Virus record (IMG/VR): IMGVR_UViG_3300007973_000016
Coordinates: 1-30,393 of that record
Length of the DNA: 30,393 bases
Strand: one strand, 5' to 3'
Origin: a virus
Taxonomy: Duplodnaviria > Caudoviricetes
This document shows positions 1,525-20,959 of this stretch, piece by piece. The notes below the pieces were generated by a model. It was not told where the DNA came from and made no database searches. It worked only from the letters and a program-made list of their open reading frames with translations. A program made the translations under genes and the position numbers. Every line of letters begins with the position of its first letter. The first letter of the stretch is position 1.

Positions 1525-1551
1525 GGCTCAGATAACCTCTCAATTTACTGA

Positions 1552-3375: not shown

Positions 3376-3387
3376 ATAGGTGGTTGG

Positions 3388-3897
3388 TTAAGTTAGGTAT
3401 GCGTTTCCGCTAAAAGAGTTTGTAAAGCTGATCCGAAGCTGCGTGGTGGAGTCATGCAACACATCTCCGCAAACCTCATTTCCAATAGAGTCAATTACAG
3501 TTGCAGAAGGTTTCCATCCAAGGTTGTGAACGATAATCCATTCGGTTGAAGGAACTCCTTGTGAGTGAGTGTACCTTGCGCTGGCAATAGCGTTTGTGAC
3601 CGACTCACTGACGATTTGCTCAACCTCTTCGAGGCTGACTCCGCCTCCACTACCCCCTATCTGGACTATCGTTGTGTCTGCACTATCTGAAGTCTGATCA
3701 GGCATCGAATCGCGCACGTCTCCAATGAGTGAACGCAATATATCATCCTCACGCTTCAGAGCCTCTCGAACACGAGACCACCAGTCGGTGAATGCCGCTT
3801 GCCCTGTCTTGGACAATCCGTCCAGCACTGGCATATCAGGCAGCATGAGAAGCTGCCGGTCTGCTGTGTCCGGATTCGATTTGCGGGTGAAGCTCAT
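3388..3897 (-). CDS. Tail accessory / fibre-anchoring protein (169 aa)
   Basis: Start overlaps the nozzle stop. N-terminal helical segment (WWSRVREAL) and C-terminal YTHSQ..WIIVHNLG..PSATVIDS.G...FSGNAYL domain seen in phage tail proteins. Confidence 0.65.
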   Translation of the reverse strand: MSFTRKSNPDTADRQLLMLPDMPVLDGLSKTGQAAFTDWWSRVREALKREDDILRSLIGDVRDSMPDQTSDSADTTIVQIGGSGGGVSLEEVEQIVSESVTNAIASARYTHSQGVPSTEWIIVHNLGWKPSATVIDSIGNEVCGDVLHDSTTQLRISFTNSFSGNAYLT

Positions 3898-6323: not shown

Positions 6324-6354
6324 GCCAGTCTGTTACCCTCGCAAAGAGGTTTCT

Positions 6355-7365
6355 TCAAGAAGTTACGACCTCCTTCAAATATTGGGACATCAAGGCTCCA
6401 TGATAAACCTTAAATATTCCGCAGTACGAGTCGTTGATTCCGATCGAAACAATCCAGTCTTCTCCGTCAAATATGGCTCCGCATGGAAGAGCAACGATTG
6501 GAGACCAATCAGACTTGCTCGTGTCAAAGCAGAAACCATCAGACGGGTCGCTAGCAACGATCGGCCATGGCGTGAACATCCGAACCCTCATCTTCTCATC
6601 GAATGCGTAAGCGCCCACGAAGTACTGACGCTTGTGGACCTTGTGCGTTCGGTATGAGTGGAAGAACGACACCCAAAGGTCTCCAGCTTTAACTGGAGGT
6701 GTTCCGCCATGAGGGATTCCGAAAATCCAATTTCCATTGTGGCGGTGATACCAAACCTTTCTGGTTTCCACCTCGAATACAATGAATGGCTCTATATTGT
6801 AGACCATCTTCAGCATTCCAGCATCACTGAAGTAGGTCCAGTTTTTCTCGTGAGACGCTCCATTCACTCCAAACCGGTTATCGTGATGAAGCAATGCTGA
6901 GCGTCCATCATTGTTCAGCTGAGCGCAGTGCATCATGCATTCCCATACGTTCCCTGCAGAATATTCTGCTGACGTGTACGAGATGTGTAGGTTTTCCCTA
7001 TGGTGGAAGATTCTTGGATCTTCAGAGTTTGGGCCGAATAGGCTTGATACAACTCTATGATTCGATGACTTGCGTAGATCCTGGTCTAGATCACACATCA
7101 CAATGTGCGAATGAACACCCAATCCAATCTCTGAGCGATCGTTGAATCCATGCCGCCTGAATGCCATCAGTGTCTTGTCTCCACTCCTGATAATGCTTGG
7201 ATTGTATGCCCTCAATCCAGGCGTGTTCATTTCAGAGTTGTCTACAATCCAGAACCTATCAGGCTTCTGTCTGTTTCTTTCAAGCGCCTGCCTAACATCA
7301 TCCGGAAGATCTCTTGAAAGCCACTGACCACATCTGGTCTCTAGAAATCCGTGATGGAGTTGCAT
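6355..7365 (-). CDS. Five-bladed beta-propeller glycoside hydrolase/phosphorylase-like protein (GH130/GH43-like clan)
   Basis: Motifs YNPSI, EDPRIF, EKNW, HGGTPP, PCGA and VSIGIND. Confidence 0.75.
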   Translation of the reverse strand: MQLHHGFLETRCGQWLSRDLPDDVRQALERNRQKPDRFWIVDNSEMNTPGLRAYNPSIIRSGDKTLMAFRRHGFNDRSEIGLGVHSHIVMCDLDQDLRKSSNHRVVSSLFGPNSEDPRIFHHRENLHISYTSAEYSAGNVWECMMHCAQLNNDGRSALLHHDNRFGVNGASHEKNWTYFSDAGMLKMVYNIEPFIVFEVETRKVWYHRHNGNWIFGIPHGGTPPVKAGDLWVSFFHSYRTHKVHKRQYFVGAYAFDEKMRVRMFTPWPIVASDPSDGFCFDTSKSDWSPIVALPCGAIFDGEDWIVSIGINDSYCGIFKVYHGALMSQYLKEVVTS

Positions 7366-7964
7366 ATATCCTCAGCCCGTTTTATCGCATCGTCCACGCC
7401 GCTGTTGGACCATGCGTGAAAGAATGTCGGCGAAGTGCTCAAGCGCGGAGATTGTGGGTTGGATACGATGGTCTCAGGAAGCATTCTGATGTGGTAACCA
7501 CAATCTCCAACCATCGTGATCGACTTCAAGCAGTCCTGCTCGTGTGTTCGATGAAGGCCACGCTGCGGAATGATTGCTGTCAATCCCGCAACGAAATCAG
7601 TAGTCCACTGGCATGATCTGTACGCCACGAATCCGGCGCATAGCCCATGGCGATCCCATGAGAAATGTATGTCTCCATCGGGCATGATGAAGTCTTTCCA
7701 AGACACCGGAATAACATCCGTGTCAGCCCATACAACAATGTCGTGGTCGCATATCAACTCCCGGACGAGCGGGTACTTCCTATAATTATGATCGTGATAG
7801 TGGTCAGCCGAATTAACGTGCCTCACGATGTGACGCCAGCCGTTTGCTTTGCACCACATCGCCATCTTAGGAATGAAGTAACGAGCGAGATCGATGTGAT
7901 TCTCGTCGTATGACTGAGCGATTACACGGCTATGCGTTGGCATAACCAGTGCAATCAACATCAC
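7341..7964 (-). CDS. GT-A fold glycosyltransferase (GT34/Mnn10-like)
   Basis: Family-like order of motifs: YRKYPLV, WADTDVI (DxD), DRHGLCAGF, HEQDCL, FFHAW. Exact start uncertain. Confidence 0.7.
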   Translation of the reverse strand: MMLIALVMPTHSRVIAQSYDENHIDLARYFIPKMAMWCKANGWRHIVRHVNSADHYHDHNYRKYPLVRELICDHDIVVWADTDVIPVSWKDFIMPDGDIHFSWDRHGLCAGFVAYRSCQWTTDFVAGLTAIIPQRGLHRTHEQDCLKSITMVGDCGYHIRMLPETIVSNPQSPRLSTSPTFFHAWSNSGVDDAIKRAEDICNSITDF

Positions 7965-9585
7965 GATCCTGCAGCTTTTGGATTGTAACTCTATCGACCA
8001 CCTCGTTATCGACGGTTACCATCTCGAACTGCATTTCGGAATCGTTTGCACTAAATCTAAGGAACCCATTTTTATCTCTGAAGAAAATCTGTGAACCGGT
8101 CGGAGTTGAAGACGTCGACTTTCCACGTTTCGTGGCACCACCAAGTCCGCAGATGACGTGCATCAGTCCATGTTGGTCTAGGATACGCTCGTAGTTGTGA
8201 GAGTGTGCGTTGACCACCAGGTCGAATCCCATCTCATGCAGGTTCAGATTCCGCATTAGCTCGCTGCCAGGAGCGTGACTCACGTCACTGGTGTACGCCG
8301 GTCTGTGGTATACTGCCACGAGCCACTTCTCCTTGGCTGCACAGGTGCGCTGCCACAGCCAGGCCTTCTGCTCAGAGAAGAACACGTTAGCATCTGACTC
8401 TCCAGATCCACTGTTCAGCACAAAGAATCGGATTGGACCCTGAGCGAACTCATACCAGTACTTGTTGAGTGTCTGGTTCGCGCCAATGACCGTCTTAAGG
8501 ATTGGAATCTCCTCGAAGAACGCAGCGCCATAGTCGGTCTCGAGATCGTGGTTTCCGAAGGCGAAGTACATCCGGTTCTCTTGAATGAAGTTCCAGTAGT
8601 GCTTTGTGAACAGGTCGCGAATAAGTGCTCGGTTTCCTCCACTCAATCCGCCTGTTCCGTATGCGGCATCTCCCATGTGGACGACGAATTGCGGGTTCAA
8701 CGCACGCACCGCACGAGCCACCTCGATAGTGTCAGCAAGTGTCGACTGCTCGCCACTGTCACCAAACATCACCCACTCGATCATTGGAGAGGTAATGGCC
8801 AGGCTCTCGCACGAACCGGTGAGAGCTTCCGGAGAAACCGTTCCGCATCCACCAGGTATGACATTGTCGAGCACCAGGATATCGTTGTTGCACGCCGTCG
8901 GAGGGGCGCAGTCAGCGTCGCTCTCTGCACGCTTGAGCCTGAGCCTCTCCTGAACCTCTGAATACAGCGAAGCAATGCTAGTTCGGTAGGTTCGCTCGTA
9001 ATCCCTGGCAAGTGCTAGGTCGCGCTCCACTTCACGAGCCAGTTTCATCTTCACATACTCGTGAACAATGGAAACCACAGGCTCATCAAACGGAACAACA
9101 TCCGTCTCGGCGTAGTCAGCATCAGCACCACGGCCGACCACGGCATCCCAGACAATCTGGATCGCGTACCCTGGAGTGAGCGCGGGGTATGCATAGATGT
9201 CTCTGGCCGAATCACGATGATCGATGCAGTACCGGAAGTGGCTTCCGCTGCATCCGATATTGATGACACCTCCAACTAGCTCACGCTTGTTTGAGAATGG
9301 CACCTCGTGCAGTGGCCGACTTGCAGAAATGCTTCCGGTCTTAATGTGGTAGAGTTCGCGCAGGCTAGCACCCTTCGGAAGCTGAGCTTTGGATGCAAAC
9401 CCCTCACGAATCACGTCGTCGTGATCCAATGTCGTCACGATGCCCTTGCGATAGTAGTCGATGAGTCGTTGAACATCTCCGACTGCAAGCCGCACTTGGC
9501 GGTCAATGAACGGCTGCACGCCGAGTCGGCGTCGCTCAATTGCGAGCAACTCATCGACGGCAGCTTTAAACTCGGACCACGTCAT
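7930..9585 (-). CDS. Putative head-tail adaptor fused to a purple-acid-phosphatase-like metallophosphoesterase (551 aa)
   Basis: N-terminal ~220 aa look like an adaptor (MTWSEFKAAVDELL, IYAYP, helical C-end). A Cys-rich linker follows, then FGDSG, MGDAAYG, FGNHD, AVYHRP and AHSHNYER metal-ligand motifs. Confidence 0.75.
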   Translation of the reverse strand: MTWSEFKAAVDELLAIERRRLGVQPFIDRQVRLAVGDVQRLIDYYRKGIVTTLDHDDVIREGFASKAQLPKGASLRELYHIKTGSISASRPLHEVPFSNKRELVGGVINIGCSGSHFRYCIDHRDSARDIYAYPALTPGYAIQIVWDAVVGRGADADYAETDVVPFDEPVVSIVHEYVKMKLAREVERDLALARDYERTYRTSIASLYSEVQERLRLKRAESDADCAPPTACNNDILVLDNVIPGGCGTVSPEALTGSCESLAITSPMIEWVMFGDSGEQSTLADTIEVARAVRALNPQFVVHMGDAAYGTGGLSGGNRALIRDLFTKHYWNFIQENRMYFAFGNHDLETDYGAAFFEEIPILKTVIGANQTLNKYWYEFAQGPIRFFVLNSGSGESDANVFFSEQKAWLWQRTCAAKEKWLVAVYHRPAYTSDVSHAPGSELMRNLNLHEMGFDLVVNAHSHNYERILDQHGLMHVICGLGGATKRGKSTSSTPTGSQIFFRDKNGFLRFSANDSEMQFEMVTVDNEVVDRVTIQKLQDRDVDCTGYANA

Positions 9586-9591
9586 GGTGTG

Positions 9592-9924
9592 TTACTTCTT
9601 GGTTGGAACTGGAGCCGCAGTCTTCACGGATTCAATCGTGGTAACCTTGACTTCAACGGATGGTTTGCTTTCCGCAAGTTGCACACGACGCACCTCCGTT
9701 ATTGGATGATACTCGTCCAAGAGCCCCTGCAGCCCCGCTTTTTTTTTGAACTCTTCAGCGTACTCCTCCTTAGAGATCTCGCGGCATCCGCGAGCTTTCA
9801 GGCGGTTGTACTCATCTTGGCTGTCGACCTCTGTGACGCCATAGAACTTATGGTTGTACTGTCCGGTGGGCTGGAAGTTGATAGCCTCGTCAGAGGCCAT
9901 TACGAAAAAGTACTTCTTCTCCAT
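9592..9924 (-). CDS. Hypothetical protein with internal A9 tract (possible recoding)
   Basis: Fills the gap in the operon; ATG at 9924 preferred over TTG at 9960. TTC AAA AAA AAA GCG at 9750-9736. Confidence 0.7.
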   Translation of the reverse strand: MEKKYFFVMASDEAINFQPTGQYNHKFYGVTEVDSQDEYNRLKARGCREISKEEYAEEFKKKAGLQGLLDEYHPITEVRRVQLAESKPSVEVKVTTIESVKTAAPVPTKK

Positions 9925-9956
9925 GGCAGTTATACTTCTATGGTGGTAGCTGTCGG

Positions 9957-10253
9957 TCAATCACGAAGGCTGTCATCGCTCTTCTTGGAAGTACCAGGGT
10001 TCTTCCATTCATCGATGCGTGCTCTAATCTTTCTCTCAACCGTAAACGCTAGTGATACAGCTGTCAGAAACGACACCACAACGCCAAGCCCAAGAGCGGC
10101 AATCTCAAGTATACTGTGAAGCATTCCAGACTTTGATGCAGCGATAGGTGCTGCGGATGCGATGAACCCAACTATCCCCTTCGATAGAACGCGGGTTGCA
10201 TCATCTCCTCCATTGTCCGCCGAAAACAGCGCGTTGATCATTGAGCGAATCAT
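9957..10253 (-). CDS. Holin-like membrane protein
   Basis: Hydrophobic segments (GIVGFIASAAPIAA; ILEIAALGLGVVVSFLTAVSLAFTV), charged C-terminus, and ATGA coupling to the upstream lipoprotein gene. Confidence 0.55.
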   Translation of the reverse strand: MIRSMINALFSADNGGDDATRVLSKGIVGFIASAAPIAASKSGMLHSILEIAALGLGVVVSFLTAVSLAFTVERKIRARIDEWKNPGTSKKSDDSLRD

Positions 10254-11044
10254 ACGTTGAGTCGTTGTCTGCGTGCCTCGATCAGTCGCTTGAAGTTGGC
10301 GTCACCAACCTCGGTGGCGTCCTTCAGTTCACCGTCGAGAATGCTGAGAACTTCTTTCGCTGAGTATGTGCGCTGTGGGCTTTCCTCAGCCGATATCTTG
10401 AGTCTCTTCCTGGCGTTTCCAACACCCTTCACTGCAGCATCGAATGCGGACTTTCCTACAAGCCCAAGCAAGTTTGTGAGCGATGGGATCTTCGATATCA
10501 GGAACGACGCGATGGCTCCCAGTACCGGAATTACCGCAGGGCAGAAAACAACCAGGGCTACGAGGCCTCCGATCCCAAACGTACTCATCGTCCAAGCCCA
10601 GATTCGCTTCCAGGTGGACTTAGCCTTCTCCTGCTCATAGAGGCGACCGAGCTCGATGAGCTTGGCGTTAGCCTGGTTGAGCTCAACCTCGAGCCTCACG
10701 CGCTCCTGGAGCCACTCCTGCTGGAGTTCCATGCGACGCTCTAGGGCATCGATCGCGGCCTTGTTGGTGGCGAGGATACCGGCGACATCAATGCGCTCGG
10801 ATGGCGTTCCCTCGATCTGCTGATCTCGCTGCAGAAATTTCTTTGCAAGATCTGTCGGCTTGTTTGTTGGAGCAAACGACAGCGCATCAAGGGCACCAGT
10901 CGTAAGTGCCTTTGATTCCTCTACCAGCTTCTCCTCCACCTTCTCAAGCGCGACAGTCTTTGCAGCTTGTTTGGACGTGGCTGGCTTAGTGAGGATGCAC
11001 CCACAGAGCATTGCCAGAATGAGTATTGCTATGGCGTGTCTCAT
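10250..11044 (-). CDS. Lipoprotein with coiled coil and C-proximal transmembrane segment; unimolecular-spanin-like
   Basis: Real start likely ATG 11044 (MRHAIAILILAMLCG-C lipobox), because the upstream extension overlaps a terminator. Coiled coil, then hydrophobic FGIGGLVALVVFCPAVIPVLGAIASFLI. Confidence 0.6.
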   Translation of the reverse strand: MRHAIAILILAMLCGCILTKPATSKQAAKTVALEKVEEKLVEESKALTTGALDALSFAPTNKPTDLAKKFLQRDQQIEGTPSERIDVAGILATNKAAIDALERRMELQQEWLQERVRLEVELNQANAKLIELGRLYEQEKAKSTWKRIWAWTMSTFGIGGLVALVVFCPAVIPVLGAIASFLISKIPSLTNLLGLVGKSAFDAAVKGVGNARKRLKISAEESPQRTYSAKEVLSILDGELKDATEVGDANFKRLIEARRQRLNV

Positions 11045-11047
11045 AGG

Positions 11048-11085
11048 AAAAAGCCCCCACCACAACTTTGCGCTGTGATGGGGGC
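11048..11085 (-). terminator. Intrinsic terminator after the capsid decoration gene
   Basis: Minus strand reads GCCCCCATCACA-9 nt loop-TGTGGTGGGGGC-TTTTT: a 12-bp stem with one G:U pair followed by a U tract. Confidence 0.8.
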
Positions 11086-11133
11086 CGGCGTCTGGGTGCC
11101 GGGAGAGGGACAGCACCCGAGAATTACTATTGG

Positions 11134-11559
11134 TTAAGCGGCCCAGTTAGTGCCATCAAGGCTGATGAGGCGTGAAACGCCCTTGGCAGCAAGGCTTAGC
11201 GCGGCGTTAGCGGAACCACCATTGATCGACCCACCAGAGGCGGGATAGATCTTCAGGATTCCAGCGCCAGCGTTGTAGATGACGAGCTCTGTTCCGGTAA
11301 CGACAACCGGCATGACAACACCCTTGGTGCCGTCGCCACCGGAGACATTGTAGACCGGGACAGCGCCCGACACGGCACCAGCATCAGCCTGAGTGCTTCC
11401 GGCAGAAGCCAGCGAAGCAACCGATCGGATGGACGGTGCAGCGTGGGATGCAGACCGCTCGAAGATAACCTCGGCGGCAAACGTACGGCGACCAGCCTCA
11501 CGCAAGGCAGGAACCTGGGTGACGCCAGTCTGGGAAGAAGGGACTTGGGAGTTAGCCAT
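11134..11559 (-). CDS. Capsid decoration / head-fibre-like protein (141 aa)
   Basis: Directly after the MCP. A/G/S-rich beta protein with LASAGSTQADA and LKIYPASGGSING motifs. Confidence 0.6.
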   Translation of the reverse strand: MANSQVPSSQTGVTQVPALREAGRRTFAAEVIFERSASHAAPSIRSVASLASAGSTQADAGAVSGAVPVYNVSGGDGTKGVVMPVVVTGTELVIYNAGAGILKIYPASGGSINGGSANAALSLAAKGVSRLISLDGTNWAA

Positions 11560-11583
11560 AAATCAAGGAAGTGAGAGTTGAAA

Positions 11584-11618
11584 GGGTGAGGCCACCGGGG
11601 CCTCCGATGACCTCACCC
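11584..11618 (-). terminator. Strong hairpin / weak terminator between MCP and decoration gene
   Basis: Minus strand reads GGGTGAGGTCATCGG-AGGCC-CCGGTGGCCTCACCC-TTTC: a 15-bp stem whose two G:U pairs work only on the minus strand. Confidence 0.65.
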
Positions 11619-11628
11619 AATTGGTTGG

Positions 11629-13428
11629 TTAGGCGACGGTGGGAGAGCACTGCGAGACAGTGACGCTCGGGCAAGCATCGCTGAAGTTCTCGATCACCGT
11701 GTGGCGGTTGGCGTTGCCGACCTGAACCTCGATGGTGCGAGAGTTCAGCTTGTAATGATTGATGTTCGGATCAATCACGCAGTTGTAGAGGTTGTCGGAC
11801 GTGTTGGTCTGGCGGGTGACAGACCGGGATCCGAGAACGCCGACCAGGATGTCGGACCAATCGACCGCCCACAGCTGACGAGCGCGGTTCTTGGTACCAG
11901 AGCCAGCACCGAGGCTCTGCGACGCCGCGATGCGATCGTCGAAGAACGTGTCGGTGAAGAACGCGATGCTGACGCCCTGGTCGGGCAGGTCGTACTTGTC
12001 GTACTCGAAGACGAACCGATTCGTCATGTTGTCGACGACCTTCTGGTTGGTCTGGAGGTTGATCTGGATGTCGGCCGATCCGTACTTGGACTTGTAGTAG
12101 CGGATCATCAGATCGCGCAGCTTGGCCTTAGTGAAACGATCACCCATGAGGTCAATGGTCTCGATCGAGGAGCCATCGTTTCCGCGCTCGCGCTTCAGGT
12201 TGTAGGCGAGCTCCATGAGGGTGTCGACGTTGAGCGCACCACCGTTGAGGTCGAGCACCTTGCCGCACTCGCCCAGCTGGGTCCGGATGCCGAGGGTGTT
12301 CGACTTGTACTCGAGCGGGCACCCCGGGTTGGTCACGTCATCGATGGTCGGCAGGTCGGTCCAGGTGGACAGAGTCTGCTTGTCGCTGATGCGCTGACCG
12401 TAGAACACGGTGTTGAAGTACCACTTCTGCATCATCATCTCCTGCTGCCGGCGCTGCTCGGCGATCGGGAGGGTGCGGAACTTCTTGAAGAACTCGCTGG
12501 TGAGCGGGGCCTCAAGCGCCTTGAGGTACTCGTCGTTGTACTGATGCGTCCAACGGTAGGTCTGACGCCAGTACTCAATGAGTCCGAGATTGTTGATCGC
12601 CGGCTGCTGGTAGCACCAGGCCTCCTTGTCGCTGACCGAGTTGGTCATAATCAAGGCGGTGCCCTTGGTGACCTCGACAGAAGCAGCACGAGCCTGAGGA
12701 GACGGAGAACCACTGGTGTTCGCCTTGAACGTAGCCCACGAAGAAGCGGAAGCCTCGTAGGACTGGAACTCGGTCGGGGCAACGATGACGTAGGCGGTGT
12801 TCGAGTCGCCAGTCTTACCGACAGCACCGACGACGCGGTACTGGTTCATCAGACCCTGGTCGATGTTGCCACCACCAACGAAGGTCTGCCAGGCAGCGCC
12901 AACGTGACGAGCGGTCGTCTCAACCGAGAGGTACATTCCGGGGAGGAAGTACTTCTCGATGTTCTTGATCGCGCTGCCGAAGCCGCCGGTCGAAGCGGTC
13001 ACGGTCAGATACCAGGCCGTAGCCGGGAGTCCGGTCGGGAACGCGGAAGCCGGATCGTTCGGGGCGCTCGCGGAGCCCGCGCTGATCAGGAAGTAGTTGA
13101 TGTTGACCATGTGGCGGCGAGGCACCAGACGGTATGGAGCAATGATCGACTGATCCTTTCCAGGGGAGCCCTCCTTGATGGGGGCGTGGCGGGAGAGGAT
13201 CAGGTCCATCAGCGAACGCTGCGGGACGCCGACGAGGCGGGCCTCCTTGGTCTGGGCGATGATGCGATCCATCCCGACCTCCTTGAAACCCTGGGCAGCG
13301 AAGTCGTCCTTGGTGAACGGACGAATGTCGGCCCGGGTGAGGGAGCATCCGGTGGAGCCATCAACGTCGAAGAACAGCGGAGTGCAGTTATTGGCGTTGA
13401 AGCCTGGGAACGTGGTTTGTGCGGGCAT
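11629..13428 (-). CDS. Major capsid protein (599 aa, enlarged)
   Basis: Order is portal-scaffold-this gene. Strongest codon bias in the window, AAAAGGA SD-like sequence, flanking hairpins, and FYGQRI...TLGIRTQL resembling HK97-fold backbone segments. Confidence 0.8.
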   Translation of the reverse strand: MPAQTTFPGFNANNCTPLFFDVDGSTGCSLTRADIRPFTKDDFAAQGFKEVGMDRIIAQTKEARLVGVPQRSLMDLILSRHAPIKEGSPGKDQSIIAPYRLVPRRHMVNINYFLISAGSASAPNDPASAFPTGLPATAWYLTVTASTGGFGSAIKNIEKYFLPGMYLSVETTARHVGAAWQTFVGGGNIDQGLMNQYRVVGAVGKTGDSNTAYVIVAPTEFQSYEASASSWATFKANTSGSPSPQARAASVEVTKGTALIMTNSVSDKEAWCYQQPAINNLGLIEYWRQTYRWTHQYNDEYLKALEAPLTSEFFKKFRTLPIAEQRRQQEMMMQKWYFNTVFYGQRISDKQTLSTWTDLPTIDDVTNPGCPLEYKSNTLGIRTQLGECGKVLDLNGGALNVDTLMELAYNLKRERGNDGSSIETIDLMGDRFTKAKLRDLMIRYYKSKYGSADIQINLQTNQKVVDNMTNRFVFEYDKYDLPDQGVSIAFFTDTFFDDRIAASQSLGAGSGTKNRARQLWAVDWSDILVGVLGSRSVTRQTNTSDNLYNCVIDPNINHYKLNSRTIEVQVGNANRHTVIENFSDACPSVTVSQCSPTVA

Positions 13429-13470
13429 AGGTTATGTCCTTTTCGCCACGCATCGTCACCCCTTGATACA

Positions 13471-13528
13471 CCCGTAAAAAGAAAACACCCGCAGTGCCCG
13501 ATTTTTTACGGGAATCACTGCGGGTGTT
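13471..13528 (-). promoter_or_regulatory. Terminator-like hairpin with a competing/pseudoknot pairing between scaffold and MCP
   Basis: Perfect 13-bp inverted repeat at 13484-13496/13516-13528, followed on the minus strand by TTCTTTTT. A second, interleaved 10-bp inverted repeat lies at 13471-13480/13503-13512. Confidence 0.7.
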
Positions 13529-13545
13529 GTGTATTTTACTTAATG

Positions 13546-14877
13546 TTACAGACCAAGGATAGAGATTATCTCTTTTCCAGGATGAGGACCATCATCAGTT
13601 TGATTCGATGGTACAGGCCCAGGAGATGCGCTGGACGAAGCGCGAACACCAGTAACAGGCTTCGGTTCCTCTGCCGGTTTGGTATTGGCCTGAGGACGCT
13701 GCCTTACAAAGCCGCGCTTCACAGCGGACTCTTCCTCGGCTTTAACCTGTGATTTTGCAGATTCGACCATGTGTGTCTGCAGCATGGTGAGCACGTCGTC
13801 ATTGTTGAATGTCCACACTCTTGAAGTGTCTTTCCCTGAGGACGCTAGCTCAGCGAACTTGACTGGAGTTACAAACTGACGTCCATCGCGGATCTTGTTT
13901 TCTCCGCCCTTGGCATCGAAGACCGCGCTCTGATGACCGATGAACTCCATGAGCCACTTGTGACGGCCCGCCTGATCCTGGTTCTTCGGCTTTGTGATGT
14001 CGTCAACCCCCTCGGCAAGTCTAACCCAGTCCGATGCGAGAGCGACGGCGCTTTCCTTGTAGCGCCCAAACACATCCTTTTCGAGCGGATCTTCTGATGA
14101 TGCAGCCTTCTCGAACGACTCGGTAAACTGAGTTACCTTTCGATCGATGAAAGGTGTGACACGAGCCTCACGGGCCTCACGCTTCGCCGCATCGATCTCA
14201 GGCTGCAGATCCTTGAGGGCTTCGCGCTTGGCCTCGTCGATGAGGCGAGCCTTGCGGATCTTGTCGCGCTGACCAGGAGCCCAGTTCGGCTTGTTCTCCT
14301 GGATGAATGTCGTGAACTCATCGTCGTTCTCATCGAACGTGCGATCAGGATCGTCCTTGTGGTCATCAACCCACTTGTCGACCGACTTGTAGAAGTCGAG
14401 AAGTTTCTTGGAGTACCCCTTCTGGGCTGGATCTTTCTGCTCGAGATACTTCGCGTCCTCGAGCTCTTCGATCTGCTCGTCGACCAGGCCGGTTATGTCG
14501 AGCTCGTCGGTCTTCTTCGGATCAGGCAGCGCAGGAACGGTCTGCGTCTGGGCCTGCGTCTTGATATCAGCCAGGTGGCGCGTCAGAGCGTCGTCGAGCT
14601 CCTTCTTTATGTCAGGGCGCTGCTTGACGCCGGCCTTGACGGTGGCTGGCTTGGTTTCTGCCGGCTTCTGATCGGCCTGCTTGGTCTCGTCAGTCTTCTT
14701 CTCTTCGACCGGCTTGATCTCTGGCGGCTCATTCTTCTGAACTGCCTGCTCGGTCTTAGCCAGAATCGATAGATCCTCTGCGAGCGAGGCCAGCAGAGGA
14801 TCGTCGATAATTCGAGACTGAGGTTGCGTTTGTGTTTGGTCGCCTTGGGCGGCTGTCTGTGTCTGATCGTTGGGCAT
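13546..14877 (-). CDS. Capsid scaffolding protein
   Basis: Between portal and MCP; charged, helical, with low-complexity termini. ATG 14877 is preceded by AAGGAGAGG. Confidence 0.7.
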   Translation of the reverse strand: MPNDQTQTAAQGDQTQTQPQSRIIDDPLLASLAEDLSILAKTEQAVQKNEPPEIKPVEEKKTDETKQADQKPAETKPATVKAGVKQRPDIKKELDDALTRHLADIKTQAQTQTVPALPDPKKTDELDITGLVDEQIEELEDAKYLEQKDPAQKGYSKKLLDFYKSVDKWVDDHKDDPDRTFDENDDEFTTFIQENKPNWAPGQRDKIRKARLIDEAKREALKDLQPEIDAAKREAREARVTPFIDRKVTQFTESFEKAASSEDPLEKDVFGRYKESAVALASDWVRLAEGVDDITKPKNQDQAGRHKWLMEFIGHQSAVFDAKGGENKIRDGRQFVTPVKFAELASSGKDTSRVWTFNNDDVLTMLQTHMVESAKSQVKAEEESAVKRGFVRQRPQANTKPAEEPKPVTGVRASSSASPGPVPSNQTDDGPHPGKEIISILGL

Positions 14878-14894
14878 TGTCCTCTCCTTAAGTA

Positions 14895-17126
14895 TCACGA
14901 TGTGGGAATCTGCGACTGCAGAGTCTCACTTGGAATCGCTGCCGCCATCCCGGGCTGGGCACCCATGACAGGCGAAGCGCCCTCACCAGGAGGAGGCTCT
15001 ACGGTCACGTCCACGCCAGCACCAGACTGACGGATGATGGTGTTGATGATGTCAGCGAGCTTCTCCTTAGTCAGCATCGAAAGAACTGCAGGCTGCATCA
15101 GAACGCCGAGCATTTGGGTGAGCGTCTGGGCTCCCTGGATGTTCGACGCACGCTCGGCACCGTCGCGGCTGTTGAAGATATATTCAGCAACCAAGTTCTT
15201 CTTGGTGCCGATCACCGAGAATTGGATCGGGTTCGATCCAGGCATCATCTCGGCAGACTCCTCATCAGCGATCGTGAATCCAGCCTTCTCAGCAACGTCG
15301 CGGCGATACCGATTAACCACCGGCAGGTAGATATCCTCGGTGCCAAGGCTGATCAGGGCGTTGTAGAGATATCGTTTCAGCGCGGAGCGACCTTCGTCGA
15401 CGGCGTCGGAAATGAACTGGTAGATGTTCTCAGTGGTGCCGGCAATAATCTGAACCTCGGTCGCGGAGGTCTCACGCGGGCTTTGCTGACCCTGCTCCTG
15501 CGGAGACAACGCCATCACCCGCTCGGCCATCATAATCGTCTGGCTGATCGAGTTGATGATCGTGTTGAGGTTCGTGTTGGGAGGCTGGCGAATGATTTTG
15601 AATACGTTGTCCAGGTCGACTCCGAGCTCGCGCATTTTCGTGAGCGACACCTCTAGGATCGATGTCTGCGCGAAGAAGTTGTCGTTCCGCATCGCGTCGC
15701 GGAATGCGTCGAGCGCCTTCTTTGCGGTCTCATTCTCCACCGGGAACGCATCGAGGTTGAGCATCGCGATTCCGAACAGGTCTCGCTTCGCGCACTCGAG
15801 CAGTTGGCTGAAGAGGTTCGACAGCTGGTCCTGGAACGGAAGGAGCTCGTGAGCCATCGACAGGTTAACCAGACGTTGCTGGCTGGGGTTGAACGAGAAC
15901 ACGAATCCCGGACAGTCGGGCATGATCTCGGCGGCGATGACGTTCTTCGAGTTGGCGATCACCAGGTGCAGCCAAACGGGGTGCGGGTAGTCACCCATGC
16001 GCCATTCGTTCGGCCGGATCTTCCAGTAGAGATGCGTGACGTAGACCGAAGAATCGCGCATCTGCGACGTGTACCGGTCCATCTGCGCCTTTCGATCGTT
16101 GTGCGAGGCGATGTCCTCGCTGTTAACCGGTGGCGAGATCTTTGTGTAGTACTGACTGAAGTAGCTCGAGTACGACTGGAACCAGGAAGTGGCGTCGGGA
16201 GAGTAAGTGATGTCCTGGCGGTTGAAGTAGGCTGGGTTGTCCAGGATCTGTGAGTACCGAAAGATGTCCCAGAATCCGAACCACTCACAGCCACTATCGC
16301 TGTTGATTGAGTGGATCGGGTGAGCGACATCGTAGAACACGCGACTTGGATGAGGCGTGATCATTGGCACACCCTCCCGCTTCACGCGACTCTTCGGCTT
16401 AATCTCCTTGTCCTGAAACTCTTCTGCCTTGTCGTCATTCTCGTCGTACCACTCGATCTCGCGATCCCACTTCGCCGCAGGGAAAGCGACAACGTACGGG
16501 TACAAAAGCATATCGCGGATCCACTGGATCTGTGAAGAGCGATATCCGTACTGATCCGCCATGATGTCTATCCGCTGTGAGAGGATATCGGCACGCAGCT
16601 TGTCGGCCTCGGAGGTGCCACGGGGCTCGAACTTGAAGAACGGGTAGAGGTTGGTGAATCTGGCGCTCTGAGCGGCCACACGGCGGCTGATAATCGACCG
16701 TAGGAGGTTGATGTTGACCTCGGTAAACTTCGGGAGGTCGATCGCCTTGGGTCGACCGCCGTCGTACTTCACGAACTGGTCAGCGCAGCTGAGATCCTTC
16801 AGCTGAGTAACGCACCGCTCCATGTCGATGCGTTTCTGGGCGTATAGGACCAACGGTATTGTTCGACGGGTGATGGTCGAAGAGTCCCATGCGAGGTCTA
16901 CGGCAGCGTACAGGTGACTTGTCCGCAGTGTCTGCAGGATCGCCTCGTCGATTCGGTTCTCAATGACTTCCTCGATCTTCTGTCGGACTCGGTAGTCGGC
17001 CAGGACGTTGTCCCTAAGCTCTTTCGGAGCATCGGCAGGAAGCCGCTCCGGAGCCGCCGTGAAGATCTCTTTAAGACGATCCTCGTGAGTCCCGAATTTG
17101 TTGAGCAGCTTGTAGTTGAGTGGCAT
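14895..17126 (-). CDS. Portal protein (743 aa)
   Basis: Size typical of P22-like portals, PRETSATEV motif, ELLPFQDQLS helix, and position upstream of scaffold/MCP. Confidence 0.85.
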   Translation of the reverse strand: MPLNYKLLNKFGTHEDRLKEIFTAAPERLPADAPKELRDNVLADYRVRQKIEEVIENRIDEAILQTLRTSHLYAAVDLAWDSSTITRRTIPLVLYAQKRIDMERCVTQLKDLSCADQFVKYDGGRPKAIDLPKFTEVNINLLRSIISRRVAAQSARFTNLYPFFKFEPRGTSEADKLRADILSQRIDIMADQYGYRSSQIQWIRDMLLYPYVVAFPAAKWDREIEWYDENDDKAEEFQDKEIKPKSRVKREGVPMITPHPSRVFYDVAHPIHSINSDSGCEWFGFWDIFRYSQILDNPAYFNRQDITYSPDATSWFQSYSSYFSQYYTKISPPVNSEDIASHNDRKAQMDRYTSQMRDSSVYVTHLYWKIRPNEWRMGDYPHPVWLHLVIANSKNVIAAEIMPDCPGFVFSFNPSQQRLVNLSMAHELLPFQDQLSNLFSQLLECAKRDLFGIAMLNLDAFPVENETAKKALDAFRDAMRNDNFFAQTSILEVSLTKMRELGVDLDNVFKIIRQPPNTNLNTIINSISQTIMMAERVMALSPQEQGQQSPRETSATEVQIIAGTTENIYQFISDAVDEGRSALKRYLYNALISLGTEDIYLPVVNRYRRDVAEKAGFTIADEESAEMMPGSNPIQFSVIGTKKNLVAEYIFNSRDGAERASNIQGAQTLTQMLGVLMQPAVLSMLTKEKLADIINTIIRQSGAGVDVTVEPPPGEGASPVMGAQPGMAAAIPSETLQSQIPTS

Positions 17127-17401
17127 TATTTCTTGAGTCCTTGGGCTCGAAACCAGTCCTGCTCACGCATATGGAACAGTAGTGCTGCGTGAGACGGAAA
17201 GAATCCGTGATTCATCCATTGGCGAAGCTGACGAATGTTGATGGCGCATGAGACTGCAAGCTCCTCCGGAGTCTCGCCAAGCAGTCGGCACGCTTTCTTG
17301 AAACGCTCGATGCCCCATCCGTCCCATACCCCAATTTGTTGATATCGTTTTACCGCACGGTAAGTTAATGGGTTTTCGGTTTCCTTAAACGATCGGATCA
17401 C
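17126..17401 (-). CDS. Small HTH (Cro/XRE-like) protein
   Basis: FKKACRLLGETPEELAVSCAINIRQLRQWMNHG fits a helix-turn-helix pattern; coupled to both neighbouring genes. Confidence 0.55.
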   Translation of the reverse strand: MIRSFKETENPLTYRAVKRYQQIGVWDGWGIERFKKACRLLGETPEELAVSCAINIRQLRQWMNHGFFPSHAALLFHMREQDWFRAQGLKK

Positions 17402-17676
17402 TTCTTTTTTGCAAACGCGATCATCACTGCGGCCGGCCCCTTTTCTGGTGCGGCCGCTTCGGATTCCCCCATAGATTCCTCCTCAGCCATAGGGGACTGC
17501 TCCTCTTCGGCGTACGCTTCAGCACTCTTGATTGAAAATGTGGCCTGCTCAGGCGTCATTTCATCCATTGATGCGGTGACCTCGAACTCGCAGGTATCTC
17601 CAGGCGATTTCTTCGAGAGGTAGTCTTTCAGTTCATCATTGCCCTCAAGGGAAATGACCATTTTGTTGGGGCTCAT
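17398..17676 (-). CDS. Acidic hypothetical protein, first gene of the structural operon
   Basis: AGGA upstream of the ATG, ATGA-type overlap with the next gene, E-rich tail. Confidence 0.7.
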   Translation of the reverse strand: MSPNKMVISLEGNDELKDYLSKKSPGDTCEFEVTASMDEMTPEQATFSIKSAEAYAEEEQSPMAEEESMGESEAAAPEKGPAAVMIAFAKKK

Positions 17677-17742: not shown

Positions 17743-19287
17743 ATGCCGTCTAAGACAAGCGAAGATGAATTGGAGGCGCTAGCCTCACTGGAACTGGATT
17801 TCGATCCAGGCCACAAGCCACGCACCGCATCGAACAAGCCGTGGATGCCGGATCTCAATCCGACCCAGCTGAAGATCTTCAACGACACCGCGCCGTTCAT
17901 CCTGGCGTATGGAGAGAAGGGTTCAGGCAAGTCGATCGGTGCCGAGCACAAGATGGTGCGGCACTGCTACGAGAACTGGGACGCCCTTGGCCTGATCGTC
18001 ACGCCGTCCATCCGTACTGGTAAGTTCGGTGTGATCCATGACCTGGAGACGCTGATCCTACCGTCATGGGAGGAGGGTATAGGCCTGGAGTGGATCCCAT
18101 CGAAGCTCGATCCGAACACAAAGGACAGAATCCTTAAGGTGGCGAACCGGCATGGCGGCTGGTCGACAATCCTCCAGATCGCTATCCCGTACGCCGAGGC
18201 GATCGCTGGTCGCGTCAAGGGTATCCACCCGTCCTTCATCCTTCCCGATGAGTTAACCGACTGCGATGGGCGCGATTACTTCACGCTTATCGCGGCACAG
18301 CTGAATCGACGACGCCACATCCAGGGGCCGCAGCAGTACGTTGCGACCTGCAACCCCAAGGGTCCGAGCAACTGGGTGTACCAGGTGTTCTTCGAGGAGC
18401 CCTTCAACCACGAAACCGGAGAACGAGACAAAAACTTCTCAGTCTACCATGTCCCATTCCGAGAGAACGCGCATCGGCCCGAGATGGCCAGCTACCTGGA
18501 AACACTCGAAAGGGCTGTCAAGGGAGACCCGATCGAAAGGGCTCGGCTCATCGAAGGAAAGTGGATCGAGAGACCCACAGGAGAAGCCCTCTTTAAGCAG
18601 CACTACGCCGCAGACCGACACATCGTCGGAGACCTCAAGCTCGGAACCGGACTGACACCTGTCCCATGGGCTCCGTGCGCGATCGGATACGACCTCGGTC
18701 AGGTGTACTCGACCGCTGTTTTCATGCAGCTGGTCCCGCTCGAGAAGGAGTCAATCTGGATCGTGTTCGACGAGATATGCCACCTGAACGAGAAGATCCT
18801 CTACAAGAACATGGCCAACGAGATCGTCGATCGGATACTGGCCTGGAACAAGGCGGTGGGAAGGAAGATGGCCTGGGAGCACATCGCTGACGATTCTGCG
18901 GTGAACCAGTGGCGTCCCGGTGGAGGAGGCAGCTACGACGCATGGGACTTCGAGAAGGAGTTCAACCGAGCCGGCCTGATCCACAATCTTCCGCAGATGA
19001 AGATGGTCGGGTGCCCGAAGGGTGCGGGATCGATCGAAGCTCGCGTCCGCATGATGCAGAGCAAGCTGCACCAGGACACGATCCTGGTGTCAGCACAGTG
19101 CCCGTGGGTTCAGGAGACGCTCTTGATGCTTGAGGGGCGCAAGGACGAGCCACTCAAGCCGAAGAAGACTGCGCGTGGACTGATCCACGTTTTCGACGCG
19201 ATGACATATCCCATGCTTCGCCAGGAAATCAGCGGTGGATCGTCCGTAAATTCGGCACCTCCTGTCTCGTCGATAATTTCCGTCTGA
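17743..19287 (+). CDS. terL: Terminase large subunit
   Basis: LNPTQ adenine-binding motif, Walker A YGEKGSGKS, Walker B ILPDE, coupling motif ATCNP, and RNase H-like GYDLG and HVFDAMTY. SD GGAGAGGAG. Confidence 0.93.
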   Translation: MPSKTSEDELEALASLELDFDPGHKPRTASNKPWMPDLNPTQLKIFNDTAPFILAYGEKGSGKSIGAEHKMVRHCYENWDALGLIVTPSIRTGKFGVIHDLETLILPSWEEGIGLEWIPSKLDPNTKDRILKVANRHGGWSTILQIAIPYAEAIAGRVKGIHPSFILPDELTDCDGRDYFTLIAAQLNRRRHIQGPQQYVATCNPKGPSNWVYQVFFEEPFNHETGERDKNFSVYHVPFRENAHRPEMASYLETLERAVKGDPIERARLIEGKWIERPTGEALFKQHYAADRHIVGDLKLGTGLTPVPWAPCAIGYDLGQVYSTAVFMQLVPLEKESIWIVFDEICHLNEKILYKNMANEIVDRILAWNKAVGRKMAWEHIADDSAVNQWRPGGGGSYDAWDFEKEFNRAGLIHNLPQMKMVGCPKGAGSIEARVRMMQSKLHQDTILVSAQCPWVQETLLMLEGRKDEPLKPKKTARGLIHVFDAMTYPMLRQEISGGSSVNSAPPVSSIISV

Positions 19288-19323
19288 TTTTCAAAAATTT
19301 GACTTGATCAACAGGGAGTCTGC

Positions 19324-19351
19324 GTGCATCTTGAGTGCATCTTGAGTGCAT
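19324..19351 (+). repeat. 11-bp tandem repeat x2.5 (GTGCATCTTGA), probable operator/promoter element
   Basis: GTGCATCTTGA GTGCATCTTGA GTGCAT lies just upstream of the HTH gene ATG; TTGACT/TTGATC hexamers at 19299-19310. Confidence 0.7.
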
Positions 19352-19360
19352 ATTTGCTGC

Positions 19361-19564
19361 ATGAAAAAGACCTCTGAACATCCACTGGATTCCGAAAGGT
19401 TGATCACGGTTTCCGAACTTGCCGACAAGATCGGATACAGCGTGAGAAGGGTGAGAAAATACGCCGCCCTTGGGAAGATACCTGTCGTCAAGCTCAACAA
19501 CCGAGACCTCAGATTCCACTGGCCGAGCGTCCTAGCCAAACTGACCAATGCCACGCTGGAATGA
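19361..19564 (+). CDS. Excisionase/HTH_17-like DNA-binding protein
   Basis: LITVSELADKIGYSVRRVRKYAALGKIPVVKL...LRF pattern; ATG 19361 preferred. Confidence 0.85.
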   Translation: MKKTSEHPLDSERLITVSELADKIGYSVRRVRKYAALGKIPVVKLNNRDLRFHWPSVLAKLTNATLE

Positions 19565-19901
19565 AGACCAACTCGCCGAGTTCCTTCAACGGCGTTCCCA
19601 CAGGGGGGATCAGGATCACACTCAAGTACCGACTACCAAGCCTCAACCGACTGTTCGGAATGAACCACTGGCAGAGGCATCGAGAAAAGAAGGAGGCAAA
19701 ACGCGCATTCGAGTCGTGGTTACGAGCAGGCGCTGCAGGCTCCTCGATCCCGACAATGTGTGCCCCAAGTACGTCATCGACCTCCTTCGATATGGGGGCG
19801 TACTGCGCGATGATTCTCCAGACCTTATCGACCTCGAAATTCGACAAGAAAGGGTCAGCAAAAAAGACCAAGAAGAAACGGTAATCGAGATACTACCATG
19901 A
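19548..19901 (+). CDS. RusA-like Holliday junction resolvase, catalytic C-terminal half (frame B)
   Basis: RLLDPDNVCPKYVIDLLRYGGVLRDDSP matches the RusA DxDN-K-D-L-G-DD signature. The stop overlaps the next ATG. Confidence 0.8.
   Translation: MPRWNEDQLAEFLQRRSHRGDQDHTQVPTTKPQPTVRNEPLAEASRKEGGKTRIRVVVTSRRCRLLDPDNVCPKYVIDLLRYGGVLRDDSPDLIDLEIRQERVSKKDQEETVIEILP
19561..19884 (+). CDS. Nested ORF carrying the RusA-like N-terminal strand/helix (frame A)
   Basis: IRITLKYRLPSLNRLFGMNHWQRHREKKEAK matches the RusA-family (P)PSxN start. Its ATG overlaps the upstream HTH stop (ATGA). Confidence 0.65.
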   Translation: MKTNSPSSFNGVPTGGIRITLKYRLPSLNRLFGMNHWQRHREKKEAKRAFESWLRAGAAGSSIPTMCAPSTSSTSFDMGAYCAMILQTLSTSKFDKKGSAKKTKKKR

Positions 19902-20959
19902 GAGAGGAACTGGCCGTAGCACTGACGGCAATCAAGAGTGACGATCTGTTCTCAGCTGCAAAGGCACGAGCGATGGTCACTGTGTACGACGAGTTGTGGC
20001 GCGAGAATTGGCGCGGCTACCAGATTGTAGATGTAGAGCGCGAGTTCGCGTTCCCACTGCTGAACCCTGAGACCGAAGGCACCAGCCGATCGTTCTCTGA
20101 GGCGGGCAAGATGGACGCTCTGCTGCGTCGTCGATCTGACGGCAAGCTGATCGTGTTGGAGCACAAGACCACTAGCGATGATGTGGCACCGGAGTCGAAC
20201 TACTGGGACCGCCTTCGGATGGACACGCAGGTCTCGAAGTACTTCCTGGGCGCAATGCAGACCGGACAGGACGTGGGCGGCGTCATCTACGATGTGATGG
20301 GCAAGCCTGGTCAACGCCAGTCGCAGATCCCGCTGCGCGACGAGGCCGGATCGAAGATCGTCCTCGATGTGAACGGTAACCGCGTTCGGACCAAGGACGG
20401 CAAGAAGTGGCGTGAGACTGGTGACACTGAAGCCGGCTACGTCGTTCAGGCTCGCCCGGAGACTGCAGAAGAGTTTGAGGTCCGTGTTCTTGGGGTTCTA
20501 CGTGAGAACCCGTTCAACTTCTACGCTCAGAAGCAGGTCGCTCGGTTGGACGCGGACATTCTCGAGTACATGAGCGACGCCTGGCAACTGAGCCAGCAGA
20601 TCCTCTACTTCCGAAAGCAGCAGCTCTGGCCGCGAAATCCGAATGCGTGCAACGCTTACAACCGCACGTGCGAGTTCTTCGATCTCTGCTCGGGCCGCGC
20701 CTCGGTCGATGGCATCCGCTTCGCCAAGACCCAGTCCGCTCACAACGAGCTCAAGATCCAGTCAGACGGCGAACGTCAGCTGCTTACCAATTCTCGGTCT
20801 GCATCGCTCCGTCGATGCGCCCGTCACCATTTCCTGCACTACGAAGAGCAGGTTCGGAAAATCCAAGAGGACGATGCTTCCGAGGCTCTCCGACTTGGCA
20901 CGTTGGTCCACCTCGGTCTCGAAGCCTACTTCAATCACCTCAAACTGATTCAGAACTGA
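19898..20959 (+). CDS. Cas4/AddB-like PD-(D/E)XK exonuclease, circularly permuted
   Basis: VEREF, GKMDAL, LEHKT, QVSKY and the Cys triad C251/C258/C264. The normally N-terminal LLTNS..RRC..GTLVHxGLE block is at the C-terminus. Confidence 0.85.
   Translation: MREELAVALTAIKSDDLFSAAKARAMVTVYDELWRENWRGYQIVDVEREFAFPLLNPETEGTSRSFSEAGKMDALLRRRSDGKLIVLEHKTTSDDVAPESNYWDRLRMDTQVSKYFLGAMQTGQDVGGVIYDVMGKPGQRQSQIPLRDEAGSKIVLDVNGNRVRTKDGKKWRETGDTEAGYVVQARPETAEEFEVRVLGVLRENPFNFYAQKQVARLDADILEYMSDAWQLSQQILYFRKQQLWPRNPNACNAYNRTCEFFDLCSGRASVDGIRFAKTQSAHNELKIQSDGERQLLTNSRSASLRRCARHHFLHYEEQVRKIQEDDASEALRLGTLVHLGLEAYFNHLKLIQN

Follow-up and report, generated by a model that had tools for sequence, protein, structure and literature searches.

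A RusA-type resolvase probably assembled from two chains encoded by overlapping reading frames in phages

Two reading frames between a small HTH gene and a recombination module

The window, i.e., the whole stretch of DNA that was analyzed, is a 30,393-base virus record, and its best matches are in freshwater metagenomes. It contains two co-directional ORFs that occupy the same bases, ORF A being nested in the +1 frame inside ORF B, and both were found at the coordinates given for them by a first-pass annotation (Table 1). Upstream lies a small HTH/excisionase-like gene, the stop codon of which overlaps the ATG of ORF A and is 14 nt beyond the ATG of ORF B. Translation of both ORFs is likely to be coupled to this stop. 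Downstream, the ATG of a PD-(D/E)XK nuclease gene overlaps the stop codon of ORF B, so that the start of the nuclease is coupled to the end of B. This nuclease opens a recombination/replication module in which Pfam matches identify, in order, an AAA_24 ATPase, a MazG-like protein, a DUF1376 protein, and DnaB. Between 19200 and 20000 no promoter-like site was detected, and the single terminator-like match, on the minus strand, is at chance level.

Table 1. Features of the overlapping gene pair and its immediate neighbors
Feature	Position	Strand	Remarks
HTH/excisionase-like small gene	19346..19564	+	Pfam HTH_17, E 1.2e-4, below cut-off; phrog_66, E 1.1e-5
ORF B	19548..19901	+	117 aa, 354 bases; holds RusA core
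B N-terminal helix	19563..19598	+	residues 6-17; only in some relatives
B strand 2	19704..19727	+	residues 53-60; doubly constrained segment
B putative catalytic residues	19746..19814	+	D67, D69, N70, K74, D78, D88/D89
ORF A	19561..19884	+	107 aa; +1 frame, nested inside ORF B
A strand 1 and PSLN	19609..19647	+	residues 17-29; predicted partner, last strand of B (co-fold)
A helix	19666..19734	+	residues 36-58; second half on same bases as B strand 2
A tail	19735..19881	+	overlies B catalytic core; stop-free in most relatives, truncated in some
PD-(D/E)XK nuclease	19898..20959	+	Pfam; first gene of downstream recombination/replication module

Other parts of the window gave three side observations. 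In the nuclease, the N-terminal part of the PDDEXK_1 profile (positions 5-50) matches the C terminus of the protein (residues 299-346), which suggests a circularly permuted enzyme. The gene for the terminase large subunit (17743-19287, plus strand) lies directly upstream of the HTH/replication module and is divergent from the structural genes (1-17676, minus strand). Finally, an antisense ORF of 683 aa (11701-13752, plus strand) overlies a 599-aa gene on the minus strand (11629-13428).

ORF A carries, in order, a putative RusA strand 1, a PSLN motif, an HW motif, and a long helix, followed by a tail rich in Ser/Thr and Lys. ORF B has an N-terminal helix and a disordered filler ahead of the RusA core, which consists of strand 2, an Arg-rich loop, the DxDN...K...D helix, a DD motif, and strands 3 and 4. 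This agrees with the first-pass annotation, which had assigned one half of RusA to each frame and had noticed that the helix of A and strand 2 of B are encoded by the same bases: residues 47-55 of A (19699-19725) coincide with the strand 2 segment of B. That annotation had also argued that neither a sequencing indel nor a single frameshift would restore a complete RusA. The layout is not an assembly artifact. An identical sequence is present on an IMG/VR contig (L001), and the contigs (as opposed to the raw reads) of four out of four public runs contain only substitutions, with no indels or joints, over 19200-20200. A metatranscriptome contig (run X19, share 0.13) spans 19473-19713, but it may derive from DNA and is too weak to count as expression.

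Profile searches, which the first-pass annotation had recommended for both frames, gave matches to RusA-like families for the window's B and none for its A. Residues 42-115 of B match phrog_1682 (E 4e-4) and phrog_34 (E 1e-3). The window's B has no Pfam match, PF05866 being hit by only 1 of 25 B members (E 0.028), and comparison of either ORF with PDB sequences yielded nothing usable on RusA. Residues R62, D67, D69, K74, D78, and D89 are invariant in 25/25 members, which is partly built into the search pattern. A search with the B profile returned up to 1147 proteins at 90% identity, including some one-chain forms, and of the 118 B-type proteins listed none has a PSxN..W motif of its own. For A, a profile search returned 260 clusters at 50% identity. 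Among 136 A sequences, N29 is invariant and P26 and S27 are conserved in at least 90%; the window's A has no Pfam or PHROG match, and phrog_1682 is matched by 2 of the 136 (E 0.02). Likeness of A to the N terminus of RusA is weak by sequence (hhalign probability 31.6% over 23 columns). The A profile ranks one-chain N termini 1st, 5th, 16th, and 23rd among roughly 3100 frames scoring under 20 bits; they align at the right position but with just 2-12 bits, and two E. coli-like frames are unranked. In one singleton protein (P0022), the short N-terminal helix of B (19548-19598 in the window) is fused in frame to A instead, hinting that this helix may be able to ride on either chain.

Distribution of the split layout and selection on both frames

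Scans with alignments of B recovered 26 + 60 viral loci, the best 80 of 108 metagenome loci, and a single genome locus, in a Chthoniobacteraceae MAG. This gave 168 sequences including the window, 166 of which could be anchored on the first catalytic Asp; the two missed by the anchor pattern (L021 and L031) have the same layout. After nine sequences with short flanks were dropped, the remaining 157 formed 50 clusters with less than 85% nucleotide identity between clusters. Although these were selected on B alone, 48 of the 50 have the split layout, in a nearly fixed register. In the +1 frame, all 48 encode a strand followed by P[ST]xN, an aromatic residue, and a basic helix. The proline of the motif lies 110 nt before the first catalytic Asp in 37 clusters, 107 nt in 7, 113 nt in 1, and, as read by eye, 116 nt in 2, the last having a variant motif. 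The other two clusters (L095 and L096) are one-chain RusA-like genes whose +1 frame is full of stops, and their profile matches are to phrog_1682 (residues 5-113) and phrog_34 (residues 3-117). The distance from motif to Asp, counted in L095, is 165 nt vs. about 110 nt in the split genes.

Since selection on similarity to B could bias the openness of B, viral contigs were also scanned with a DNA pattern in which nothing but the two motifs and the spacing between them is specified. This set comprises 113 matches, 112 with flanks, in 47 clusters, 32 of them new, which brings the total of distinct clusters with the split layout to about 80. P[ST]xN is found in 78 of the 80 clusters (imposed by the pattern in the 32 pattern-picked ones) and the downstream Asp motif in 79, DxD and Lys being partly imposed by the search patterns. 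Arg is present at -5 in 76 and at -3 in 72 of the 80, again partly imposed in the B-selected set.

When the one-chain genes L095 and L096 were used as queries, only one new relative was found. Among 401 genomes of the phylum of G001 there were three matches, of which two are split (G001 and G250) and one is one-chain (G152). The layout is also present in GenBank entry BK063671 (vir555), the host of which is given in the record as Methanomicrobiales and in which A is annotated and B missed. The occurrence of the split gene in this entry (L178, 3001-3336), together with L097 and L183 from two genomes of the phylum of the Chthoniobacteraceae MAG, is suggestive of a wide host span. A quick tree of 89 core sequences over 68 columns, in which 7 of 86 branches are starred, neither excludes nor shows a single origin; the fixed register would fit one origin, which this tree cannot show. 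Three loci stood out individually. L186 (MW202801, about 680-1050) is an intact one-chain RusA-like ORF left unannotated in its record. The B frame of L263 is interrupted past the catalytic helix, with unrelated-looking sequence beyond, as in a pseudogene or a misassembly. L158-L160 are three copies of the locus with equal identity on one 105-kb metagenome contig, possibly an assembly concatemer.

The first-pass annotation had proposed examining synonymous sites for constraint, and we found it in both directions. For frame A, B was recoded synonymously 1000 times per cluster using local codon usage. Across the whole B core, the A frame is open in 39 of the 48 clusters vs. 2.8 expected. By zone, it is open in 47 over -48..0, which corresponds to strand 2 of B (17.6 expected), in 43 over 0..+60 (18.3 expected), and in 44 over +60..+120 (17.1 expected). 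The -1 frame, used as a control, is open throughout in 2/48 vs. 1.0 expected, with a mild excess in one zone (14 vs. 7.1). For frame B, A was recoded in the same 48 clusters and B was scored over the N-terminal half of A: it is open in 48/48 vs. 12.2 expected, while the third frame is open in 2 vs. 3.8 expected. The 47 pattern-picked clusters behave likewise, with B open upstream in 47, A open up to the Asp in 46, the A tail open in 37, and the third frame open in 2. Since the clusters are related and not independent, nominal P values for these comparisons are too small.

In strand 2 of B, the wobble bases of codons -14, -13, -11, -10, -9, and -7 are fixed as C, T, C, C, T, and C in 39, 38, 34, 36, 45, and 32 of the 48 clusters, respectively, and together they spell an amphipathic Ala-Leu-x-Ser-Ala-Leu helix in A. 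As the second codon position of A is the wobble position of B, the chemistry of A is almost independent of the B sequence. At codon -9, A has Leu in 43 clusters vs. Ser in 3, both stop-free, and at codon -11, Ser in 34 vs. Leu in 6; since the choice is opposite at the two sites, stop avoidance alone does not explain the fixation. Neither does shared ancestry, since the neighboring sites -15, -8, +1, +23, and +26 match expectation and look neutral, and there is no conserved RNA structure that would explain the fixation. Both frames are thus under selection over the shared bases.

These results bear on the reading in which frame A passively shadows B, or in which the layout is an error of sequencing or assembly. 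In the window alone, the chance of an open +1 frame over the B core upon synonymous recoding is 0.09, so that this frame by itself is no more than chance and relatives are needed, and the Lys-rich tail of A largely follows from the Glu/Lys codons of B. However, the layout is shared by 80 distinct clusters, wobble fixation is position specific, the +1 frames of the one-chain relatives are closed, and there are no indels in the four runs. We regard a shadow or artifact as refuted by conservation and recoding, with a negligible residual probability.

A two-chain resolvase gives no reason for the tail of A to stay open, some contacts from A85-94 being seen in the co-fold described below, and coupling of the A stop to the next gene, found in 10/80 clusters vs. 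50/80 for the B stop, does not explain it either. In two of the 80 clusters, A stops at -2, and in eight it stops at or before +55. Individual loci with natural truncations are L018, L203, and L287 (stop at -2), L104 and L114 (+28), and L099 and L108 (+55). Judging from these sequences, such truncations would define a minimal A whose essential part ends with the helix.

Translation starts and recoding signals

An upstream start codon is present in both frames in 48/48 clusters, being ATG in 44 for A and in 36 for B. A-frame ATG or GTG starts pile up just ahead of strand 1, with 23 of 80 at -143. A spacing of 4 nt between the two starts, as NTGA-NTG, is seen in eight of the 48 clusters, several of which have one Shine-Dalgarno-like motif ahead of the pair; these tandem starts, in which the start codon of B forms a stop before the A start, occur in L016, L026, L029, L030, L088, L092, L138, and L151. 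Neither start in the window has a Shine-Dalgarno-like motif, and both would depend on translational coupling at the HTH stop codon. Open upstream frames and starts in both indicate that both frames behave as genes with their own starts.

As an alternative to two chains, the first-pass annotation had suggested a -1 frameshift at the A_AAG (19686-19689) and A_AAA (19698-19701) tetramers, both of which are indeed present, at Lys/Glu-rich codons. This would give a shortened A-B fusion without most of helix 1. Such tetramers cluster at -65 to -53 in the relatives, with up to 16/48 at one position, but this is because of conserved Lys-Glu-Lys residues. Slippery X_XXY_YYZ heptamers occur in only 6/48 clusters, at four positions, and none is found in frame A of the window from -110 to -17 nt relative to the first catalytic Asp. 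A conserved 3' RNA structure was not found either in pseudoknot-free folding, with a mean z of -0.16 over -55..+15, a z below -2 in 5/80 clusters, and an empty alifold consensus. One protein in the databases (P0003) is a fusion of precisely the kind proposed. It is a singleton, however, encoded by a contig of 924 bp on which a second frameshift, into the following gene, is apparent, and we rejected it as a likely read error. Frameshifting would also have no need for an open upstream B frame, which is nonetheless universal in the split clusters, and it would discard the second half of the A helix, the most constrained part of the overlap. We therefore find it very unlikely that the main product is a -1 fusion, and such a fusion could still arise as a minor by-product.

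A different route to a standard enzyme would be a backward hop of about 40-55 nt, by the ribosome or the polymerase, or a DNA duplication in a subpopulation, either of which would join the complete helix of A to strand 2 of B and produce a one-chain RusA. This would restore the usual enzyme and explain the nearly fixed register. We know of no backward hop of about 40-55 nt. Direct repeats of at least 6 nt at suitable spacing are found in 17/48 clusters (12 and 6 in controls), but they are scattered over 12 spacings, with at most three clusters at any one, so there is no shared spacing. Like the -1 frameshift, a hop or duplication needs neither the open upstream B frame (48/48 vs. 12.2 expected; 47/47 in the pattern-picked set) nor a start of its own for B; the 80 clusters have no conserved RNA structure, and no joint was seen in the contigs of the four runs. 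This explanation is rather improbable, if somewhat less so than the -1 fusion.

Four of 150 A-type proteins (P0065, P0083, P0100, and P0128), all singletons, end in C-terminal strands of the B type; in three of the four, the switch comes immediately behind the catalytic helix. Scanning with P0083 turned up no locus. If natural, they would mean that the frames swap roles mid-gene and that the fold is divided differently.

Predicted structure, possible origin, and comparison with known systems

An AlphaFold2 model of B based on 25 sequences (mean pLDDT 79.9, and 86-96 in the core) comprises a helix (residues 6-17), a coil (18-53), a strand (54-62), a helix (73-82), and two more strands (94-102 and 110-116). 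B alone has three strands and one core helix, without strand 1 and helix 1. The model aligns only to residues 52-116 of E. coli RusA (1Q8R), leaving 1-51 without a counterpart (Z 4.8, rmsd 2.8, 62 residues aligned), in a match tied within 1 Z with FtsZ domains. Foldseek gave no match for it at E 0.001, RusA being at ranks 7 and 48. A modeled alone has helices at 28-33, 36-60, and 71-92 and no strand, and a wide fold search (VIA) with it returned generic helical matches only, RusA not being listed.

The two were also modeled together, as the first-pass annotation had envisaged. Co-folding of B45-117 with A14-95 predicted a complemented fold with an ipSAE of 0.76 (0.00 for the best of three controls). 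The mark for a pass was reached by 116/157 solved complexes and 2/215 mismatched pairs, with the caveat that the two parts of a split gene may also reach it by resembling the solved RusA. At least 89% of contacts are shared between runs, and the partner pLDDT is at least 75. A17-25 contacts B109-117, and A42-50 contacts the catalytic helix of B around residue 79; the strand of A is thereby predicted to complete the sheet of B and its helix to pack on the catalytic helix. We take the pairing of A17-25 with B109-117 to be the strand order of RusA. E. coli RusA has a four-stranded sheet and two helices (PMC1636454), which is what A and B are predicted to provide together. Its catalytic residues are D70, D72, K76, and D90, and its DNA contacts comprise residues 13-16 and the 15-28 loop, both modeled in junction recognition, and the Arg-rich loop (PMC1636454). 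The putative equivalents of the catalytic residues in B are D67, D69, K74, and D89.

B has no equivalent of the N-terminal contacts, so B alone would lack one DNA-contact element. This weighs against B being a self-sufficient minimal nuclease, with A as a separate protein (a regulator, inhibitor, or DNA-binding factor) derived from the RusA N terminus. That alternative draws on the facts that B folds confidently alone and has all the predicted catalytic residues, and that the long basic tail of A and its second predicted helix are superfluous for complementation. However, every one of the 48 split clusters has A, no B-type protein among those listed has the missing motif, and the co-fold places A as the missing strand and helix. 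We consider it unlikely, although it is the strongest of the competitors.

Compared with E. coli RusA (1Q8R, 2H8C, and 2H8E; PF05866), phrog_1682, and phrog_34, the pair shares an Arg-rich loop before DxDN, a conserved Lys, and a downstream Asp pair, and like RusA-type phage families it lies inside a phage recombination/replication module. It differs in that RusA is one chain, whereas here two chains are encoded on the same bases, B covering only 52-116. In addition, the spacing from Asp to Lys is longer (D67-K74, and longer still in some relatives, vs. D70-K76 in E. coli), and both chains carry long extra segments, the filler of B and the tail of A. Closest in core sequence are the one-chain genes L095, L096, L181, and L186 (hhalign probability 98.4%), which share with A a similar N-terminal strand-S.N-HW-basic helix pattern but have all motifs in one frame, with the +1 frame closed and, in L095, the longer motif-to-Asp distance given above. 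Since its predicted working is RusA-like but it is not one chain, we classify the pair as a RusA-derived two-chain variant.

Taken together, conservation of the layout, synonymous-site tests in both directions, the model of B without the N-terminal part of RusA, and the co-fold support the two-chain resolvase put forward in the first-pass annotation, and we consider it probable that the two overlapping ORFs encode a RusA-type resolvase of this kind. In the relatives, models, and contigs covered, none of the three outcomes that the annotation had named as speaking against it was encountered. Ribosomes leaving the upstream gene would restart at either start, so that both chains are made from one message. 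Strand 1, helix 1, and the PSxN turn for DNA contact would come from A, with B contributing the catalytic Asp and Lys residues together with the remainder of the sheet. Strand completion would assemble them into one resolvase subunit, and A-B units may dimerize like RusA into an A2B2 enzyme that would cut branched DNA during phage recombination and replication. As for its origin, the distances in L095 and in the split genes would fit the loss of roughly 55 nt, with a shift of frame, from a one-chain rusA (165 vs. about 110 nt). Helix 1 and strand 2 would thereby have come to share bases, after which the fragments may have been kept by complementation. The word "overprinted" in the first-pass annotation would then apply only to the filler and tail segments, the likelier origin of the pair being fission of a one-chain gene. 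A broader statement seems likely too, with marginally less assurance: in a widespread phage lineage, two polypeptides translated from the same nucleotides in different frames make up one enzyme domain, within which a 24-nt stretch encodes both a beta-strand in one polypeptide and a helix in its partner, after a frameshift fission locked in for the age of the clade.

The two chains would explain two families of "hypothetical proteins", i.e., the 260 clusters of A and the up to 1147 proteins of B, the latter including one-chain forms. An annotated record may display just one of the frames, as in BK063671, and other enzymes may hide likewise.

Partners encoded by overlapping frames of one DNA stretch are known from other systems. 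The spanins Rz and Rz1 are interacting products of overlapping frames and exist in embedded, overlapped, separated, and unimolecular forms (PMC6139136), while XLalphas and ALEX are binding partners from overlapping frames that are stated to be structurally unrelated (PMC1186735). A and B, which are predicted to bind each other, resemble both pairs in coming from the same stretch. They differ in that the partners in those pairs are separate structural units, whereas A and B are predicted to interdigitate as the two halves of one enzyme domain, which close relatives still make as one chain.

In split enzymes that result from gene fission, the pieces of an ancestral protein complement one another. 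Out-of-frame fission is discussed in PMC8788219, which contains no mention of RusA. Split genes usually lie side by side, whereas here one is nested wholly in the other and essential elements share nucleotides. PMC10885494 has a single mention of RusA/RuvC, among genes for which frameshifts have been reported, and we found no description of a split or overlapping RusA in searches of the literature outside subscription journals.

In the usual description of overlapping genes, their products are unrelated and the newer one arose by overprinting (PMC6195259 and PMC8227390). In the present pair, each frame appears to encode an essential half of an ancestral enzyme, and intact one-chain relatives serve as controls. 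How an overlap can originate by fission, and what double coding costs, can thus be tested directly on a gene of 354 bases. If the two-chain resolvase is true, it would represent a natural way for a single gene to become an obligate overlapping pair that is invisible to gene callers.
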